Assembly: GCA_046542505.1 (NCBI GenBank)
Contig: JBKHBH010000040.1
Coordinates: 1 to 17,226 of the forward strand
Source of the DNA: Thermovirgaceae bacterium
GTDB lineage: Bacteria > Synergistota > Synergistia > Synergistales > Thermovirgaceae
Reading direction: 5' to 3'
Length of the DNA: 17,226 nt
Part shown: piece after piece, positions 3,129-10,629 of the stretch
How positions within the stretch are numbered: position 1 is the stretch's first letter
How the letters are laid out: every line of letters begins with the position of its first letter
The notes under the pieces: model-generated
What the model was told of the DNA's origin: nothing
What the model saw: the letters and a program-made list of their open reading frames with translations, nothing else
The model's database searches: none
Translations under genes and position numbers: made by a program

Positions 3129-4331
3129 TCACGCCTGCTCCAGCCACCTCCAGGCGAGTGCCGAAAGGAGCGTCACCCCATCGACCAGGACATCGTCATT
3201 GGTCCTGAAGACGGGGCTGTGATGCTGGGCGTCGGTCCCTTTTTCAGGGTCTCCCATCCCAAGAAAGAAAAAGGCCCCCGGAACTTTTTCCTGGTAAAAG
3301 CTGAAGTCCTCCGATCCCAGGATGATCTCCTGCTCCTCAAGGGCGTCTTCGCCCATAATGGATCCCGCCGTTTCCACAAGGAGTTCAACCATTTTCTTGT
3401 CGTTGACGGTAACTGGATATACGGGAAGGAAATTTACCCTGGTCTCGCACCTGAAAGCCGACCCGACCCCCTCGGCGATCCTCCTGATGCGTCCGGGCAT
3501 TTCGTCGCGGACAACGGGGCTCGTGGTGCGGACGTTGCCGGTAAGTTTTGCCGTTTCCGGAATGATGTTCGCCGCCGTGCCGCACTCGATCTTCCCCACG
3601 CTCAGGACCACCGCCTCCTGGGGGTCGATCTCCCGGCTCACAATCGTCTGTACCGTGGAGATGATCGTCGCGGCGGCAATGGTGGGGTCCACCGCTTCAT
3701 GGGGTCTTGAACCATGACCGCCGCGGCCCTTGACCTCGACCTCCCAGATATCCGCCGAGGCCATCACCGGTCCGACCCTGTACCCGAGCTTTCCCGTGGG
3801 AAGCTGCGCCCAGACGTGCATGCCCCATATGGCGTCAACTCCCTCAAGAACACCTTCATCTACAAGCTGCTTCGCCCCCGAGTCAAACCCGGACTCCTCG
3901 GCAGGCTGGAAGATGAGGCGCACCCTTCCGGGCAGTTCGTCCTTCAGTGCCGCCAGGACATGGGCGACGCCAAGAAGTACCGATGCATGGGCGTCATGTC
4001 CGCAGGCATGCATGACACCGGCGTTCTTAGACTTCCAAGGATTATCGATGGCCTCGTCCACGGGCAGGGCATCGATATCCCCCCTGATGGCCACCATGGG
4101 ACATTTTCCGTTGCCCCCTATGTCCGCTGCAACCCCCGAGCCGGTCCCCCTGAAACCCCGCCGGATGTTTTCGTAGCCAAGGTCTTTCAACACCGATTCG
4201 ATGATTTTCGACGTCCGCTCCTCTTTCCACGAGAGTTCCGGGTGGGCGTGGAAGTCGTGGCGGAATCCGATGACCTTCTCTTCAAGATCCTTTGCCAGGC
4301 TTCGAAATCTTTCCATATCCAAATTCATCAC
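3129..4331 (-). CDS. M20D family amidohydrolase (N-acyl-amino acid amidohydrolase / carboxypeptidase / hippuricase-like)
   Basis: RHDFHAHPELS, RGDIDALP, MHACGHDAH, FQPAEE, GMH, GRGGHGSRPH, SEDF, HHSP motifs. Start could be 4331, 4328 or 4316. Confidence 0.95.
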   Translation of the reverse strand: MMNLDMERFRSLAKDLEEKVIGFRHDFHAHPELSWKEERTSKIIESVLKDLGYENIRRGFRGTGSGVAADIGGNGKCPMVAIRGDIDALPVDEAIDNPWKSKNAGVMHACGHDAHASVLLGVAHVLAALKDELPGRVRLIFQPAEESGFDSGAKQLVDEGVLEGVDAIWGMHVWAQLPTGKLGYRVGPVMASADIWEVEVKGRGGHGSRPHEAVDPTIAAATIISTVQTIVSREIDPQEAVVLSVGKIECGTAANIIPETAKLTGNVRTTSPVVRDEMPGRIRRIAEGVGSAFRCETRVNFLPVYPVTVNDKKMVELLVETAGSIMGEDALEEQEIILGSEDFSFYQEKVPGAFFFLGMGDPEKGTDAQHHSPVFRTNDDVLVDGVTLLSALAWRWLEQA

Positions 4332-4339
4332 CCCTCAGG

Positions 4340-5524
4340 CTACATCAGGTTCACCAGGAAGCCCGCCAAAAAGACCGACGCAATGGTCACCGTGGTGAAC
4401 CCCGAGACCAGCATCTTGGGCAAGATCCCTGTGAGAACGAATTCCCGCTCTTCCGGCGTCTCCCCCAACGCCGTGGCGACCTCGTTGGAAATGATGAAGG
4501 TGGCCGGGAAGCCGAAAAGGCAGCAGACCCCGATGGCCAGGCTCATTTCCCAGGTATATTTGAAAATCTTCGCCGAAACGAGAGCCACAACGACGATGCC
4601 AACCAGCGCCACGGCGAAGGCGATCACGATGGGTCCGATCAAGGACATCACCATGTCGGGCGTAGCCTTGTTGAGGCTCATGAAGATGGGAACCAACAGG
4701 GCGAAAAGCGCCAGTCCCTCGGCGTTGGCCTTCGTCAGGATCTTGTGTTCCAGGAACCCTGCTTCGTAGAACAGGATGCCAAAGGCCAGGGCCATGACGA
4801 ACTTGTTGATCACGTCGCCCAGAAGGCCCGCTACCAACACGGCCAGCCAGCCGACCAGCATGGCCTTCATGATGAGGATAAAGGGCGTCTGGAGATCCTT
4901 CGGCGTCTCGGGAAAAATTTTCAAGGCTGGTCTTTCGTGTTCTTCTACAACCCTTTCACCCTTATTCGCCTCTGTGACTCCCTCTCCCCTGCGGAAAATC
5001 CCCCTGAGACGCCGCCCCTCCCTGGTGAGACAAACCGAGGCAATGGGCAGGCCTACGAAGTTCTGGAGCACCAGAAGGAGCGTTAAAAAGACAAGCACCG
5101 TCTCCAGCCCCTTTGCCTTGGCGGCCTCGCTCATGATGAGAGTGGCCACCACGCCCCCCGAGATCGGGCCCGCCGCGGGCACTGCAAATTCCTTGCCGAT
5201 CAGCGGCGACCCGATAATAAAGAGCGCAGCCGATGCGGCCACGATGGCGCCAAGAGCTATGAGGACCGTCTTCCACTCTTCCTTGAGGTCCCTGAGCTTC
5301 ATGAGCGTCCCCATGTGTACCATCAGCATCGGGATAAGGCCCAGTGCCACCGGGACGAGAGCCGAATCCTCGAAGAGCGTCTCGGGGATACCGAACCAGA
5401 ACCCCACCATGAAAATAATGCCCGACACAAACAGCATGGAAAAAACCGCTTTCGTCTTCTGGGCCACGAAATCGCCTACGGCGTAGACGACCGCGATGAC
5501 CAGAAGCGCCGCTACAGTACTCAT
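4340..5524 (-). CDS. Uncharacterised multi-pass membrane protein, putative amino acid/peptide transporter
   Basis: About 394 aa, two hydrophobic halves joined by a charged loop, Gly-rich GPISGG and GFP motifs. ATG at 5524 follows GGGGAGG; 8 bp from the amidohydrolase. Confidence 0.8.
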   Translation of the reverse strand: MSTVAALLVIAVVYAVGDFVAQKTKAVFSMLFVSGIIFMVGFWFGIPETLFEDSALVPVALGLIPMLMVHMGTLMKLRDLKEEWKTVLIALGAIVAASAALFIIGSPLIGKEFAVPAAGPISGGVVATLIMSEAAKAKGLETVLVFLTLLLVLQNFVGLPIASVCLTREGRRLRGIFRRGEGVTEANKGERVVEEHERPALKIFPETPKDLQTPFILIMKAMLVGWLAVLVAGLLGDVINKFVMALAFGILFYEAGFLEHKILTKANAEGLALFALLVPIFMSLNKATPDMVMSLIGPIVIAFAVALVGIVVVALVSAKIFKYTWEMSLAIGVCCLFGFPATFIISNEVATALGETPEEREFVLTGILPKMLVSGFTTVTIASVFLAGFLVNLM

Positions 5525-5562: not shown

Positions 5563-5600
5563 AAAAAAGCCGGGGTCCCCTTCTTTTCGGGAACCCCGGC
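5563..5600 (-). terminator. Attenuator terminator hairpin (3:4)
   Basis: Minus strand GCCGGGGTTCCC-gaaaagaa-GGGGACCCCGGC-TTTTTT, about 40 nt upstream of the transporter start and downstream of a promoter. Confidence 0.9.
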
Positions 5601-5621
5601 CTCTTTTCGGCTCACGGACGC

Positions 5622-5711
5622 CTAGGCGTCGAACCGCAGAGGGGGTTCCACGCTGCCATAATAATAAAAGCAGAACCAGTTCATCGTAATGGACACGCGT
5701 GCTCTCCGCAT
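5622..5711 (-). CDS. Leader peptide MRRARVSITMNWFCFYYYGSVEPPLRFDA (29 aa)
   Basis: AAGGAGG SD (5726-5720), 8-nt spacer, ATG 5711, TAG 5624-5622; control codons TGG TTC TGC TTT TAT TAT TAT at 5678-5658. Confidence 0.85.
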   Translation of the reverse strand: MRRARVSITMNWFCFYYYGSVEPPLRFDA

Positions 5712-5745
5712 GCAGGCATCCTCCTTTTTAAAATTGTTGCTTAAT

Positions 5746-5774
5746 CTTATAGCACTTTATTCAGGAGGCGTCAA
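5746..5774 (-). promoter_or_regulatory. Sigma70-type promoter for leader-transporter-amidohydrolase operon
   Basis: TTGACG (5774-5769), 17 bp, TATAAG (5751-5746), preceded by extended -10 TG. Confidence 0.75.
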
Positions 5775-5901: not shown

Positions 5902-6456
5902 TTATTCGGGCATAAAGGGACGCACAAAGGGCGACGTTGCACCCTTGCGCATGAAATGCCCCGACGGACCTTCGCCGAGAAATTCCGAGAACCACGATTC
6001 ATGCTCGATTTCCTCGTGCAGTATCGCCTGGGCAAGGGCATAGGTCCTGTGATCCTTTCCGGCCGTCATGTTGCAAATCTCGTTGTACCCTCTTACGGCA
6101 CAACGCTCAGCCTCGACCAGGACTTCGAGGATGGCCTTCACGTCCGTCGGATCCTTCGGAAGATTGGCCGGCGGACAAGCTGACATGTCGTGAAAGGCTT
6201 TCATATCATCAGGGAGCTTCCCGCCCAGTTCGTATATCCTGGGCACCAGTGCCTCGAAATGGTTCCTGTCCTCTATGCGCGCCGCTTCAGCAATCTCCTT
6301 GATGCCCTCACCCTCAAGACCGATCAGGTTTGCCCGGAGGATCGTGTAATAGTAGAAGGTCGTCAGCTCGGCGGCCGCGTTTGCCACAAGAAGCTCCAAT
6401 AGTTCCTCAACGTTTACTCCCGCTTGCTCCACAACTTCTCTTGACACTTTTGCCAT
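5902..6456 (-). CDS. dps: DPS-like (DPSL) ferritin-family protein
   Basis: AAAELTTFYYYTILR, EDRNHFEALVPRIYELGG, SACPPA and EAERCA (paired Cys typical of DPSL/thioferritin), EEIEHE di-iron ligands; SD GGGGGAG. Confidence 0.92.
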   Translation of the reverse strand: MAKVSREVVEQAGVNVEELLELLVANAAAELTTFYYYTILRANLIGLEGEGIKEIAEAARIEDRNHFEALVPRIYELGGKLPDDMKAFHDMSACPPANLPKDPTDVKAILEVLVEAERCAVRGYNEICNMTAGKDHRTYALAQAILHEEIEHESWFSEFLGEGPSGHFMRKGATSPFVRPFMPE

Positions 6457-6749: not shown

Positions 6750-8420
6750 TCAATCAGGCGAACCCGCTTCATTGACCAGGGCTGTTACGTTGAAAAAATC
6801 GGCGCTGAGAGGCTGACGATAAACCGGCGTCCCGGGGTCTTTCCCCTCGAGAAGGGCCGCTCTGACCAGGGCGTATTCCGCCATGGCAGCACCGGAGGGC
6901 ACGGGATGGTCAAAGACTGAGGCCGGGACATGGTGAAAATCATCCGGACGGGATTCCACCCATCCTTCGGGCCCCCTGAAGGACTCCACGTAACTGGCCA
7001 AATCCACGGACACACTCCGCAGTTGCGGGTTTTCTTTCGCAAGGGTCAACACGGCCGCCAGAAGGGCCGCGGCGTCAAAGAGAAAGGATTGCTCCTGGAG
7101 TGCGCCGCGGGAAACGCAATGGGCCAGGCGCCGTCCGTCCCAGAAGACGTCCAGCAGGCGTTTTCCCATAGAATCGGCCATCTGGGAGAACGTTTTCTTT
7201 TGCAGCAGATACCCGGCCTCGGACAAGGCCATAACGGCGAGGGCATTGTTTCCGCACAGGATTTTGGTGTCTGCTTCAGGCTGGGGCCGTTCTCTCCGGG
7301 TTTCCAGGAGCTTTGCCTCAATTTCGGGCAGGTTCTCATCGACACGTTTCACCAGGTGGATCCTGCCTTCGAAGTTTCCGCCAGGTTCGATGTGATAAAC
7401 GCGCTTCAACTCGCGGAAATCCTCCCTGGAGAGGAGGCTTTCCAGCTCATCATAGCCCCACAGGTAGGTCCCGCCTTCTTCGTGTTGCGTATCGGCGTCA
7501 AAGGCAGCAAGAAACAGCCCCTCCCTTTCGAAGCATTCCCCGAGGCAGCGGGCGACGGTTTCCGCCGTTGACGCATAGGCCTCCTCTTTCAGGACGGAAG
7601 CGGCCAGGGAATAGCACCAAAGTCCCATGGCCTGGTCGTAGAGCATCTTCTCGAAATGGGGGATGTGCCACCGTTCGTCCACACAATACCGGAACAGGCC
7701 GCCCTGCAGGTGGTCATTGAGACCACCCAGCCGCATGGCATCCAGGGTCTTGCGGCACATGGCCCCGGCTGCAGGTGATTCCTCCTTCTCCAGCAAGTGC
7801 AAAAGGTACAGCAAGCTGCAATGGGGCGGGAACTTCGCACCTCTCCCGAACCCGCCTGACCGGTGGTCAAACAGCCGTTTCAGGGCCGGCAGGACCTGTT
7901 CACGCGAAACAGGGTCCGGCAAAGCCGCCGAAGGCATAAAAACCGCCGCATCAAGCTGTTCTTCCCGCCAGACCCGGTTCAGTCCTTTCGCCACATCCAG
8001 CAGGCCGGGCATTCCGCCTTCGGTCTGCGCCGGAAGGTAGGTAAAGGCAAATATCGGCTCAAGCCGTGGCGTCAGAAAAGCATTCAGCGGCCAGCCTCCA
8101 CTTCCCGTCGTGGCTGTGAGAAAGTCCATGAGATAGTGGTCGATATCGGGCCGCTCTTCCCGGTCGACCTTGACACAAACAAAATGTGAGTTTAGATACT
8201 CCGCCACGTTGTCATCGGAAAAGGCTCCCGCCGCCATGACATGACACCAGTGGCAGGTCGCGTATCCCGAGGATACGAAGATGGGAACATCACGTCTCGA
8301 GGCTTCCTCAATGATGCCCTTGCCCCATTCCTGCCACCAGACAGGATTGCCGGCGTGCTGCAAAAGGTACGGGGACCGGGCTGAATCCAGGTTGTTCCTG
8401 TCAAGACGTTCCGGTGTCAT
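6750..8420 (-). CDS. Thioredoxin-domain protein DUF255 (YyaL/SSP411-like)
   Basis: SPYLLQHAGNPVWW, CHWCHVM, KVDREERPDID, GGWPLNAFLTP, GGFGRGAKFP, PHFEKMLYDQA. Confidence 0.92.
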   Translation of the reverse strand: MTPERLDRNNLDSARSPYLLQHAGNPVWWQEWGKGIIEEASRRDVPIFVSSGYATCHWCHVMAAGAFSDDNVAEYLNSHFVCVKVDREERPDIDHYLMDFLTATTGSGGWPLNAFLTPRLEPIFAFTYLPAQTEGGMPGLLDVAKGLNRVWREEQLDAAVFMPSAALPDPVSREQVLPALKRLFDHRSGGFGRGAKFPPHCSLLYLLHLLEKEESPAAGAMCRKTLDAMRLGGLNDHLQGGLFRYCVDERWHIPHFEKMLYDQAMGLWCYSLAASVLKEEAYASTAETVARCLGECFEREGLFLAAFDADTQHEEGGTYLWGYDELESLLSREDFRELKRVYHIEPGGNFEGRIHLVKRVDENLPEIEAKLLETRRERPQPEADTKILCGNNALAVMALSEAGYLLQKKTFSQMADSMGKRLLDVFWDGRRLAHCVSRGALQEQSFLFDAAALLAAVLTLAKENPQLRSVSVDLASYVESFRGPEGWVESRPDDFHHVPASVFDHPVPSGAAMAEYALVRAALLEGKDPGTPVYRQPLSADFFNVTALVNEAGSPD

Positions 8421-9166
8421 CCGGCGTGTTTGACCTTTCCCACGGCTGCCATGTAAACGACAAACTCCTCTCCGCCGTCGACTCCCAGCAACTTGTCAGC
8501 CTCGTCCTGATCGTAGGCGGCGATGGCGCAGGCGCCTGCCGAGATGGCCTCGCAGGCCAGGTAAAGGTTCTGGCAGACATGTCCCGCATCAAGGGCGATC
8601 ACCTTGTAGGAGGCGTCGCCATAGCGCCACTCCATGCGGTACGGGACAGCCGTCCAGAAAAAGGTCACGGCTCCGGCACCGGCGAAGGCCTGACCCAGTG
8701 CCGCCCTGGCCGTCAGGGATTCCACGGCTTCAGGCCTGGAGACCGCCACGAGGGCGTGTTCAGTGGGAAGATACCGGTAAATCCCTTTTGAAAGACCCGG
8801 GACCCTGAAAAGGGCAAGATACGTCTCAAGGGCATGACGGCACCCGGCTGAGGGAACCACACGTTTGGCGTGCCCTCCTTCGGGCTTTTCCTTCATCCCC
8901 TGGGTCGCCCACAGGAGAAAGGAAAGCTCCTCCACAGAAAGAGGGTCCCAGTTGTAGTTCCTTCGGGAAGCCCTGTTCTGGATAGCATCCCAAAGTAGTA
9001 CCCCGCCTGGATCTTCCGGCTGCGGCAATGTTATCCGTTCGCAATCCTCCGGGCAGGGTTTGTAAACCGGAGGGGGTTTCACTCCCCGGTACTGGTCCGT
9101 TTCGGAAAAATCCACCTCTTTACGTATCGAATCCTTGAGAAAATACCGTCCTTCTTCCTTCATCAC
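8417..9166 (-). CDS. SagB/ThcOx family nitroreductase-fold flavoprotein
   Basis: RASRRNY, LSFLLWATQG, RVVPSAGCRHALETY, WRYG, LDAGHVCQNLYLACEA; ATGA overlap with the DUF255 gene. Confidence 0.92.
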   Translation of the reverse strand: MMKEEGRYFLKDSIRKEVDFSETDQYRGVKPPPVYKPCPEDCERITLPQPEDPGGVLLWDAIQNRASRRNYNWDPLSVEELSFLLWATQGMKEKPEGGHAKRVVPSAGCRHALETYLALFRVPGLSKGIYRYLPTEHALVAVSRPEAVESLTARAALGQAFAGAGAVTFFWTAVPYRMEWRYGDASYKVIALDAGHVCQNLYLACEAISAGACAIAAYDQDEADKLLGVDGGEEFVVYMAAVGKVKHAG

Positions 9167-9213
9167 GCAACACTCCCGGACTTAAAAGAATCTTGTTCAC
9201 TTTCGCCGGTTAC

Positions 9214-10629
9214 TCACTCGTCTGCAAGGAACCTGGGGCCGTGAGGCACGTTGCAGGCATGGCAGCGTTTCGTGTACCCCGCGGCGCTGTATCCCGTCAT
9301 CCCGCCGGCAACGTTGAAAAGCTTGGAAAAACCTTTTTGCTTCAGGATGGAGGCGGCGATGCTGCCCCGGTTTCCAGAACTGCAGATCACCACGACAGAT
9401 TTTTGGCGATCGAGCTCTTCATGACGAGACCTCAGCTCGTCAACGGGAATGTTGAGGGCACCTTCTATGTGATTGTCGTCGAATTCCGCCGGGGCACGCA
9501 CATCGAGCAAGATGAACTTTTCGGCGTCGGTGATCATGCCATGCAATCCCCCAGCCGAAAGGAGAGGGACGTTGCCTGTTGAAAAGCCCGCCGTGACCCA
9601 GGCCGGCATTCCCCCGGCGAGTATCCCTGTGATGCGGTCCACTCCAACCCTCCGGGCTCCGGTGACGGCCTTTTCGGCCTCCTCCGGCCCACTGTCGACG
9701 AGCAGGATATCCTTGTCCACCGGGAGGACCCAGCCGGCAAAAGTGGGGAAATTCCCGTTCAGGTCAAGATTCCACGATCCAGAAACATGATGGCCCGAAA
9801 AGGCATCGTAGGTTCTCACGTCGAGGATTTCCACATCCTTCGCTCGTTCCCGGAAGGCTGCCGGGTCCAGCTCCTCAGGCACGGGAAGTTTCGAAAGCAG
9901 CTCCGGCCCCTGCCGGTTGATCTCGGTACACCGCGAAAAGTGATCCGGAGCCGGCGGCATGTCGTTTGTAAGAGAATGGATAAATTCCTCCTTGTCCTCA
10001 ATATTGAGGGCGGGGTTGAAAAGCCGCTCGTACCCTATGGTGCTGGTCCGCTTGGCCGCCATGGAACGGCCGCACAGGGAACCCGCTCCATGTGCGGGAT
10101 ACACCTCGCAGTGATCGGGCAAAGACAGCAGTTTGTCGTGGAGGCTGTGATACAGTTTCCCCGCCAGGTCTTCCGCCTTGCCGGGGAAAAGATCGGGCCT
10201 TCCCACGTCACCCACGAAAAGGGTATCCCCGGTGAAAACCGCCACGGGACTGTCGCTCCTTGCAAGATCTTTCACGACGTAGGCCACATGCTCGGGTGTA
10301 TGGCCCGGCGTCTCCACGACTTCAAGAAGGAGGTTCTCGATCTCCACCGTGTCTTTTTCCGAAAGAGGGACGTGGTCGAAGACGCACTCGGCCGACCTGG
10401 GAACATGGATCTTCGCACCCGTCACCGCCGCAAGGTCCATGTGGCCGGAGACAAAGTCGGCATGCAGGTGGGTCTGAAAAATGTGAGTGATAGCCACCCC
10501 CATAGCCTGTGCCTCATCCAGATAAACCTGGATGTCTCGCCTCGGGTCGATCACTGCGCATGACGATTTCACTGCAAGAATATACGAACTGTGGGCAATC
10601 TTTTCCGTGAAAATCTGTCTGAGGAGCAT
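9214..10629 (-). CDS. MBL-fold hydrolase / persulfide dioxygenase-like protein fused to rhodanese domains (CstB/Blh-like)
   Basis: THLHADFVSGH, TPGHTPEH, FTGDTLFVGDVGRPDL, PAHGAGSLCG; two rhodanese domains, the C-terminal one with CSSGNRG; AGGAGG SD. Confidence 0.92.
   Translation of the reverse strand: MLLRQIFTEKIAHSSYILAVKSSCAVIDPRRDIQVYLDEAQAMGVAITHIFQTHLHADFVSGHMDLAAVTGAKIHVPRSAECVFDHVPLSEKDTVEIENLLLEVVETPGHTPEHVAYVVKDLARSDSPVAVFTGDTLFVGDVGRPDLFPGKAEDLAGKLYHSLHDKLLSLPDHCEVYPAHGAGSLCGRSMAAKRTSTIGYERLFNPALNIEDKEEFIHSLTNDMPPAPDHFSRCTEINRQGPELLSKLPVPEELDPAAFRERAKDVEILDVRTYDAFSGHHVSGSWNLDLNGNFPTFAGWVLPVDKDILLVDSGPEEAEKAVTGARRVGVDRITGILAGGMPAWVTAGFSTGNVPLLSAGGLHGMITDAEKFILLDVRAPAEFDDNHIEGALNIPVDELRSRHEELDRQKSVVVICSSGNRGSIAASILKQKGFSKLFNVAGGMTGYSAAGYTKRCHACNVPHGPRFLADE

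Follow-up and report, generated by a model that had tools for sequence, protein, structure and literature searches.

A probable leader-peptide attenuator with an aromatic codon run upstream of a transporter and amidohydrolase operon, and related leaders in the Synergistales

The first 17,226 nt of contig JBKHBH010000040.1 of a Thermovirgaceae bacterium (assembly GCA_046542505.1; this whole stretch is referred to as the window) carry on the minus strand a short open reading frame (ORF) rich in aromatic codons, followed by an intrinsic terminator and by an operon for a membrane transporter and an M20D-family amidohydrolase. The locus raises the question of whether a shortage of aromatic amino acids lets RNA polymerase pass this terminator and enter the operon, as a first-pass annotation of the sequence had proposed. 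We conclude that the element is very probably a ribosome-mediated (leader-peptide) transcription attenuator that controls the transporter and amidohydrolase operon. In silico, this conclusion is supported by two alternative RNA structures and the covariation within them, by where the codon run lies, and by the agreement of codon runs with downstream genes across a family of related leaders.

Anatomy and folding of the leader

All parts of the element lie on the minus strand. The promoter (5774-5746) has the -35 hexamer TTGACG (5774-5769), a 17-nt spacer and the -10 hexamer TATAAG (5751-5746), the latter preceded by TG-n as in an extended -10 element. Both the arrangement and the hexamers are kept upstream of a paralogous leader on contig C30 of the same genome and upstream of the leaders of same-genus orthologues. 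A Shine-Dalgarno (SD) sequence, AAGGAGG (5726-5720), stands 8 nt before the ATG at 5711. The leader ORF, MRRARVSITMNWFCFYYYGSVEPPLRFDA, runs over 29 codons and a TAG stop (5711-5622, stop at 5624-5622) and has homologous ORFs in orthologues and paralogues; its control codons W12, F13, C14, F15, Y16, Y17 and Y18, six of the seven aromatic, occupy 5678-5658. The terminator (5600-5563) consists of a 12-bp G+C-rich stem (5600-5589/5580-5569), an 8-nt loop (5588-5581) and a U6 tract (5568-5563), with a stability of about -30 kcal/mol by RNAfold. In all of these parts the first-pass annotation was found to be right. A weaker point of the observation is that a simple consensus scanner lists neither this promoter nor the main terminator; the promoter is left out because the scanner rule needs a T at the last -10 position, and both features were judged by folding and conservation in place of the consensus scan. 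The gene upstream of the attenuator encodes a ferritin-like protein (5902-6456, Ferritin Pfam match) and has its own intrinsic terminator (5860-5814, with a scan match at 5846-5825), so that the attenuator begins a new transcription unit.

The small ORFs of the genome were enumerated, giving 87,630 start-stop ORFs of 8-60 codons. At least six aromatic residues in seven were found in only 14 of them, which share 5 distinct ORF ends, and the window leader was the only one of the 14 to have both an SD sequence and a downstream T-run. The aromatic run of the window leader is not a chance feature of this genome.

The segment GGAACCCC (5649-5642), close behind the control codons, is complementary to GGGGTTCC (5597-5590) in the 5' arm of the terminator, as had been pointed out before. 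This pairing belongs to a long antiterminator hairpin (5652-5587), whose 5' strand is the last nine leader codons, whose 3' strand is the terminator 5' arm, and whose apical loop holds the stop codon. When the nascent RNA between the Val codon and the terminator loop (5654-5579) was folded, this one long hairpin was the minimum-energy structure, in agreement with the first-pass description; it has a free energy of -37 kcal/mol and a z-score of -3.72, and none of 200 shuffles folded as stably.

The effect of a translating ribosome was assessed by a mask scan, in which a footprint of -18 to +10 around the A site was assumed, the transcript was taken to begin at 5748 (roughly 9 nt before its likely start), and the nascent RNA was folded to the terminator loop. 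The antiterminator held 8-10 of the 14 nucleotides of the terminator arm when no ribosome was present and for A-site positions from codon 1 to codon 18. The last A-site position that left it intact was Y18, which is also the last aromatic codon. With the A site at codons 21-27, the antiterminator was lost and only two arm nucleotides remained paired, leaving the arm free for the terminator.

We infer that the leader is translated, that the ribosome stalls in the codon run, that folding follows a kinetic order, and that the operon responds to amino acid supply. Transcription would start at the promoter, with translation of the 29-codon leader following behind the advancing RNA polymerase. A shortage of charged Trp-, Phe- or Tyr-tRNA would make the ribosome stall within W-F-C-F-Y-Y-Y and leave the last nine codons bare; these would pair with the terminator 5' arm to form the antiterminator and permit read-through into the operon. 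With charged aromatic tRNAs available, the ribosome would cover the last nine codons as far as the stop codon that lies in the apical loop. It would thereby unwind the 5' strand of the antiterminator, the terminator would form, and the transcript would end at about 5563.

The first-pass annotation had also described a 1:2 hairpin that involves the W-F-C codons, and had assigned the element to the four-segment trpL/pheL architecture. This protector hairpin was seen only in an isolated 45-nt piece (-9.9 kcal/mol), for which 23 of 200 shuffles were as good, and it was displaced by another local hairpin once the RNA was extended. The same piece in six relatives folded worse than most shuffles (170-199 of 200 as good). 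Being no better than chance and not conserved, the hairpin was rejected; the four-segment assignment falls with it, the ribosome-free nascent RNA folding into the antiterminator. A 1:2 protector or pause hairpin is not common to every attenuator of the ribosome-mediated kind. The element is thus predicted to be a two-structure variant and, since no protector hairpin is supported, untranslated leaders would be expected to read through, unlike in trp-type superattenuation.

Related leaders at transporter loci and across the Synergistales

Orthologues of the transporter were found in 16 of 41 related genomes. In public genomes, relatives of the transporter occupy 416 places, from which 80 loci (L021-L100) were kept. 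The upstream 420 nt were scanned in 76 of them, four having been dropped because the match lacked the N-terminus, and a small ORF followed by a strong terminator was found in 13. Twelve of these 13 loci bear Synergistota titles, and the thirteenth appears to be the same place as the one in a same-genus genome (G004). The leaders of same-genus orthologues read ..MNWFGFYYYGGVGPPLRF(G/D)A. Here C14 of the window leader is replaced by Gly, and the suggestion that Cys might also be sensed is not sustained by this unconserved position. In other genera the leaders are different in sequence and again aromatic: GFFYYW(Q), CFYYW(Q), SFYFWY(G), SFFYYW(H), FFFGFWY and FFSFFFAYWY.

To describe the family, a covariance model, designated R1 and defined in this analysis, was built from ten leaders with the antiterminator as its structure. 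The window element scores 95 bits on R1, but it was part of the seed and the score is high by construction, so that independent support comes from the other matches. In a sample of 151 genomes of the Synergistales, 106 were matched by R1 at E ≤ 0.01; these represent 44 of 51 genera and include some members of each of the ten families, and a single genome can have as many as 12 matches. In five genomes from other phyla, all with the transporter, R1 found only two borderline matches (E about 0.009-0.01).

An ORF preceded by an SD sequence ended with its in-frame stop at the same position of the model in 24 of 24 loci, these being the loci, out of 30 returned by the R1 search, that did not duplicate ones already read (six duplicates); among 26 loci of four complete genomes, 22 showed this arrangement as well. 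An SD-like purine run stands before each leader ORF reported in relatives, and was a requirement of the filter used for such ORFs.

Covariation was evaluated in two alignments. In a MAFFT alignment of ten sequences, the antiterminator was paired in 78% of cells, compared with 34-60% when the pairing was slid, and 9 of its 25 pairs had changed on both sides; the terminator was paired in 77% of cells. A larger alignment (A5), made with R1, comprises 59 members in 56 distinct rows; here 82.5% of the antiterminator cells were paired, compared with 36-53% slid. Of the 24 pairs, 23 had changed on both sides; cells with such double changes numbered 192, compared with 10-32 slid, and none of 500 shuffles reached the observed covariation values.

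A conserved and covarying RNA scaffold would also be expected of a structured cis-regulatory RNA that binds a protein or a metabolite; the small ORF would be incidental to such a riboswitch or protein-binding leader. However, the conserved part comprises only the terminator/antiterminator pair and has no extra domain, and in every strong member an SD sequence and a start codon are present and the in-frame stop falls at a constant place in the structure. Systematic differences are limited to the codon run, which matches the pathway. In addition, no riboswitch or T-box of Rfam was matched: Rfam 15 gave no match at gathering thresholds in the whole window and nothing relevant at E ≤ 10, where the best match was an unrelated viral element with 21 bits against a gathering score of 65. 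We therefore regard a ligand- or protein-binding RNA as highly unlikely, and the attenuator remains the preferred explanation.

Among the copies the scaffold is constant, and the codon run varies with the gene that it precedes. The downstream genes were checked with Pfam or NCBIfam. A leader with the run ..MMMCMCGGPP.. precedes MetN, MetI and MetQ genes in the window's own genome (contig C42) and, at locus L163, a gene with ABC_tran and NIL domains (MetN-type by Pfam). The run ..SLSLLLGC.. precedes LeuA, ..VTTTTTMTTC.. homoserine dehydrogenase, ..FAVVVVVDV.. PanB, and the Ile/Leu/Val run ..AIILVLVLALIIRC.. (IILVLVLALII) the small subunit of acetolactate synthase (AHAS). Two tandem copies of ..NIIIIAIIINC.. 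stand before an ACT-domain small-subunit-like protein. Among uptake genes, ..SFFSFFFSC.. precedes a family-3 solute-binding protein and ..SFYFYFWF.. a sodium:solute symporter.

The paralogous leader on contig C30 (L101:5481-5645, minus strand), MQRDRTAVLMNCFGFYYFSGVEPPLRFDA with the core MNCFGFYYFSGVEPPLRFDA, has the same promoter, antiterminator and terminator as the window leader and precedes a PaaK-like phenylacetate-CoA ligase (TIGR02155, 491 bits, below the cut-off of 646). Phe/Tyr runs (FGFVYFY, FVFNYYY, FFAIRYYF, FAFTYYY, FYFYYF, FFEYYY, FFFF) were found before PaaK-like ligases at 21 of 22 loci by tblastn, the sole miss being L119; the ligases at those loci are 53-83% identical to the copy of the window's genome. 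By hand count, a Trp codon is present in the run of all ten transporter-linked aromatic leaders, whereas none of the 22 PaaK-linked leaders has one. This difference supports the view that Trp would be genuinely sensed at the window operon. The transporter leader of the window genus is nearly identical to the PaaK-ligase leader and looks like a recent copy of the C30 leader.

A further explanation is that the ORF and its terminator form a gene for a small hydrophobic protein and play no part in controlling the downstream operon. The leader peptide is indeed hydrophobic, and small ORFs followed by terminators are common. Yet the peptide shows sequence conservation only where RNA pairing constrains it, the ORF overlaps with a structure incompatible with the terminator, and amino-acid-related genes always follow shortly after the element on the same strand. 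On this evidence an unrelated protein gene is extremely improbable.

The conserved leader end G-x-P-P-(L/G) points to one more alternative, namely nascent-peptide or proline-dependent arrest at a stalling motif that depends on elongation factor P (EF-P) or on a ligand. Such a switch would read elongation capacity or a small molecule, not aromatic tRNA charging. Pro-Pro is present in 33 of the 46 leaders read (hand count); it is encoded within the antiterminator 5' strand, and a ribosome pausing at this place would promote termination. In the other 13 leaders it is lost (SLPG, DSPE, FLPG, EGAF and others), yet the RNA pairing is kept, and CCN CCN is, in frame, the complement of the G-rich terminator arm, so that RNA constraint alone explains the dipeptide. 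Peptide arrest also leaves unexplained why the variable codon run follows the regulated gene. We consider it very unlikely and retain attenuation by stalling at the control codons.

Several observations nevertheless weigh against this attenuation model and have to be set beside the evidence above. In the mask folds, the terminator arm paired with the SD region (9-12 nt) when codons 19-20 or 28-30 occupied the A site, a pairing that would be unlikely in vivo. The full-length RNA at equilibrium always folded into the terminator, in every mask fold; the switch must therefore be kinetic and rests on the assumed order of co-transcriptional folding. Classical attenuators are likewise kinetic switches. 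RNAalifold, applied to the MAFFT alignment, returned the terminator and a local hairpin (GCGU.GGAAC / GUUCG.ACGC), not the antiterminator. This local hairpin, which also appears in longer folds, competes with the antiterminator; it could act as a protector and change the read-through default of an untranslated leader, which makes the ribosome-free default uncertain. The A5 alignment was fitted to the structure of the model and its numbers lean towards that structure, the values from MAFFT alone being weaker, and the E-values of R1 are rough, its calibration having been shortened. At the transporter loci, some orthologues, belonging to one family, have Ile-rich leaders (YIIILS, IVIYLS, VIIIYLS, VMIYIS), so that the link between leader and substrate is lineage-specific, and 3 of 11 Synergistota transporter orthologues from the window's order (L007-L009) have no obvious leader by eye.

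Collectively, homologous leaders at orthologues, covarying pairs and codon runs that track the downstream gene argue that the first-pass proposal of aromatic stalling and read-through into a transport and hydrolase operon is very probably correct. A more far-reaching reading is that the Synergistales share one portable chassis, made up of a terminator and an antiterminator with the last part of a leader ORF as its 5' strand, that was re-targeted by exchanging 5-8 codons and copied before biosynthetic, uptake and salvage genes, with Pro-Pro as a built-in pause that holds the ribosome until the polymerase passes the terminator, so that the switch would also read elongation capacity through EF-P. 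We hold this combined reading to be doubtful. If it were true, the codon run of each copy would be a natural label for the substrate class of uncharacterised Synergistota transporters and enzymes.

Not all leaders at transporter loci fall within R1. It does not match those of L012, L024, L025 and L046 at E ≤ 1. Folding of L024, L025 and L046 gave an antiterminator that pairs the 3' end of the leader with the terminator 5' arm, with the stop codon in or near the apical loop in L024 and L025 and outside that loop in L046; these three are treated as diverged or independent relatives. The fold of L012 showed no clear antiterminator. L024 and L025 (L005/L006) also have two strong terminator-like hairpins in series and a further 100-165 nt or so between the aromatic leader and the transporter start. 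In L010/L038 the leader ends early (..VIIIYLSVGLL*), the usual ending ..PPLKVSV* is found only in another frame, and the RNA pairing is kept; the early stop may be a real frame change or an assembly error. A paralogous transporter and M20D pair, with a transporter 39% identical, has a Met/Cys-type leader (FNMMCPDC). In frame, the leader of L014/L068 reads ..MPIICFNMMCPDCGSSPGVVGI, of the Met/Cys type; ..VALIVGPPLEWSAF belongs to a wrong frame.

Elsewhere in the window's genome, R1 matched on contigs C110, C42 and C125 with 36, 24 and 17 bits, respectively. On C42 (L111:649-753, plus strand) the homologous attenuator upstream of metN, metI and metQ has a leader that ends ..TSIMMMCMCGGPPGVIGAA. 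On C110 (L110:5390-5488, minus strand), and likewise at L150 in a same-genus genome, an Ile/Leu/Val-type leader, ..VILAIILLVLIPCGSPPGAAVT, is followed by a terminator; after about 340 nt without a clear gene come AddB- and AddA-like genes, which are DNA repair genes. The weak match on C125 (L112:596-689, plus strand) has the leader ..FAYALIIYFPSGSPSW and precedes a 382-aa protein without a family and a class-III aminotransferase, and L148 has a similar pair. In one genome two matches about 240 nt apart (L151/L162) are tandem Ile-rich attenuators before an 83-aa ACT-domain protein that resembles the acetolactate synthase small subunit. Six PaaK-linked leaders (L125-L127, L129, L130, L133) have a Trp codon after Pro-Pro (..PPRWADA, ..PPLWFDA), on the antiterminator strand, where a stall would favour termination over read-through.

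The downstream operon and its possible substrates

The first putatively regulated gene (4340-5524, minus strand) encodes a 394-aa membrane transporter with a predicted CitS/2HCT-like fold, and its ATG (5524) lies 38 nt beyond the terminator. No Pfam or NCBIfam family matched it. Its cluster in the atlas is named 'Na+/glutamate symporter family', with 2HCT among the neighbours at a score of 0.92. The AlphaFold2 (AF2) model of the transporter has a predicted local distance difference test (pLDDT) value of 80.5, and its best match in the PDB is the Na+/citrate symporter CitS (5a1s_B; E 3e-5, template modelling score 0.63, 14% identity). The second gene (3129-4331, minus strand) encodes an amidohydrolase of the aminoacylase/carboxypeptidase type with Peptidase_M20 and M20_dimer domains. 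With 374.8 bits on TIGR01891 (cut-off 153.75) it is a member of the M20D subfamily, and on the CpsA equivalog it scores 412.5 bits, below the cut-off of 500.

In most of the 80 loci, which come from several phyla, the gene that immediately follows the transporter homologue is the M20D gene, and this includes loci outside the Synergistota. The closest loci are titled Thermovirgaceae and Synergistaceae, and more distant ones spirochaetes, Sedimentibacter, Ignavibacteria and others. This conservation suggests that the transporter/M20D pair forms one functional module. Unlike the M20D gene, the attenuator does not accompany the transporter outside the Synergistota, as judged by the upstream scan and R1. 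The pair itself is conserved in Synergistota, spirochaetes, Bacillota and others.

Given a predicted CitS-like transporter fold together with an aminoacylase-type M20D hydrolase, we infer that the operon may import a carboxylate-bearing conjugate of an aromatic amino acid and hydrolyse it to free the amino acid. The link of the window operon to aromatic amino acids would come from the leader, where the codon run would serve as a functional label that ties the unnamed CitS-fold transporter and its M20D partner to aromatic amino acid supply. The codon run likewise ties the PaaK-like ligases to Phe/Tyr supply. Aryl acids can be converted to aromatic amino acids by reductive carboxylation via indolepyruvate ferredoxin oxidoreductase, and the window's genome encodes IorA above the model cut-off; the PaaK-linked copies would fit synthesis of Phe and Tyr from aryl acids by this enzyme. 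Loss of the shikimate pathway was considered as the reason for such a regulon and rejected, because chorismate synthase is present in the window's genome (357 bits) and the organism is not simply auxotrophic.

Two further features of the window are recorded here. Positions 6750-10629 (minus strand) hold a redox- and sulfur-related run that includes a DUF255 thioredoxin-like protein, a nitroreductase and a metallo-beta-lactamase fused to rhodanese domains, and a GGDEF protein is encoded at 1682-2899 on the plus strand.

Comparison with known systems

Leader-peptide attenuation is best known from Proteobacteria and Actinobacteria. The present family would make it a major mode of amino acid control in Synergistota, for which none was found described. 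The family also offers a natural experiment in the re-targeting of a regulatory RNA by codon swap, and R1 a new model for Rfam-style annotation.

The trpL, pheL and hisL attenuators of E. coli have a short translated leader with a cognate codon run and mutually exclusive antiterminator and terminator structures, and stalling leads to read-through. The window element shares the leader, the codon run and the exclusive structures with them, and the same outcome of stalling is proposed here. It differs from them in having no sequence homology and no covariance-model homology by Rfam, no supported 1:2 protector hairpin, an antiterminator in which the end of the ORF serves as the 5' strand and the stop codon falls in the apical loop, and a transporter and a hydrolase as targets. 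The ilvGMEDA and thr attenuators of E. coli carry a mixed run for several amino acids (branched-chain, or Thr and Ile), precede biosynthetic operons and have the four-segment architecture; the window leader resembles them in reading several amino acids in one mixed codon run. In the Lactococcus leu/phe leader motif of Rfam, one conserved scaffold bears different codon runs for different pathways, with two specificities in one genus. The R1 family, by comparison, has at least seven kinds of run (Met, Leu, Thr, Ile/Leu/Val, Val, Phe/Tyr and Phe/Tyr/Trp) across an order.

A full-text literature search for Synergistetes or Synergistota together with attenuator, leader peptide or upstream ORF (uORF) found no description of such a family. 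On HisR and His attenuators, PMC9413887 records no leader peptide for Synergistetes. Stav et al. 2019 (PMC6429828), whose analysis covered Thermovirga lienii, describe in the relevant passages a motif, 'PBC-10', upstream of acetohydroxyacid synthase in Synergistia; likened by description only, PBC-10 may be an Ile/Leu/Val member of the R1 family. For Firmicutes the same passages list two candidates, uORF-12 and uORF-13, under the name 'aromatic amino acid attenuators'; one of the two precedes genes for amino acid transporters. These provide a precedent for a non-biosynthetic target, which the first-pass annotation had thought unusual. According to their descriptions, they occur in Bacilli, Clostridia and Erysipelotrichia; the R1 family is confined, as far as searched, to the Synergistales and serves many amino acids on one scaffold.

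The second feature that had been thought unusual, several amino acids in one leader, has a precedent in the aroR leader of C. glutamicum (Neshat et al. 2014, as summarised in the review PMC11802643). Its Phe-Tyr-Phe run controls aroF (DAHP synthase) and, according to that summary, responds to Phe and not to Tyr. As summarised there, aroR resembles the window leader in its mixed aromatic codons and in the use of ribosome stalling to control genes of aromatic amino acid supply; it differs in lacking a Trp codon, in belonging to another phylum and in showing no detectable homology to the window leader. Mixed aromatic sensing and attenuated transporters are thus not new, whereas the Synergistales family and its targets appear to be; the novelty lies in the family, not in the principle.

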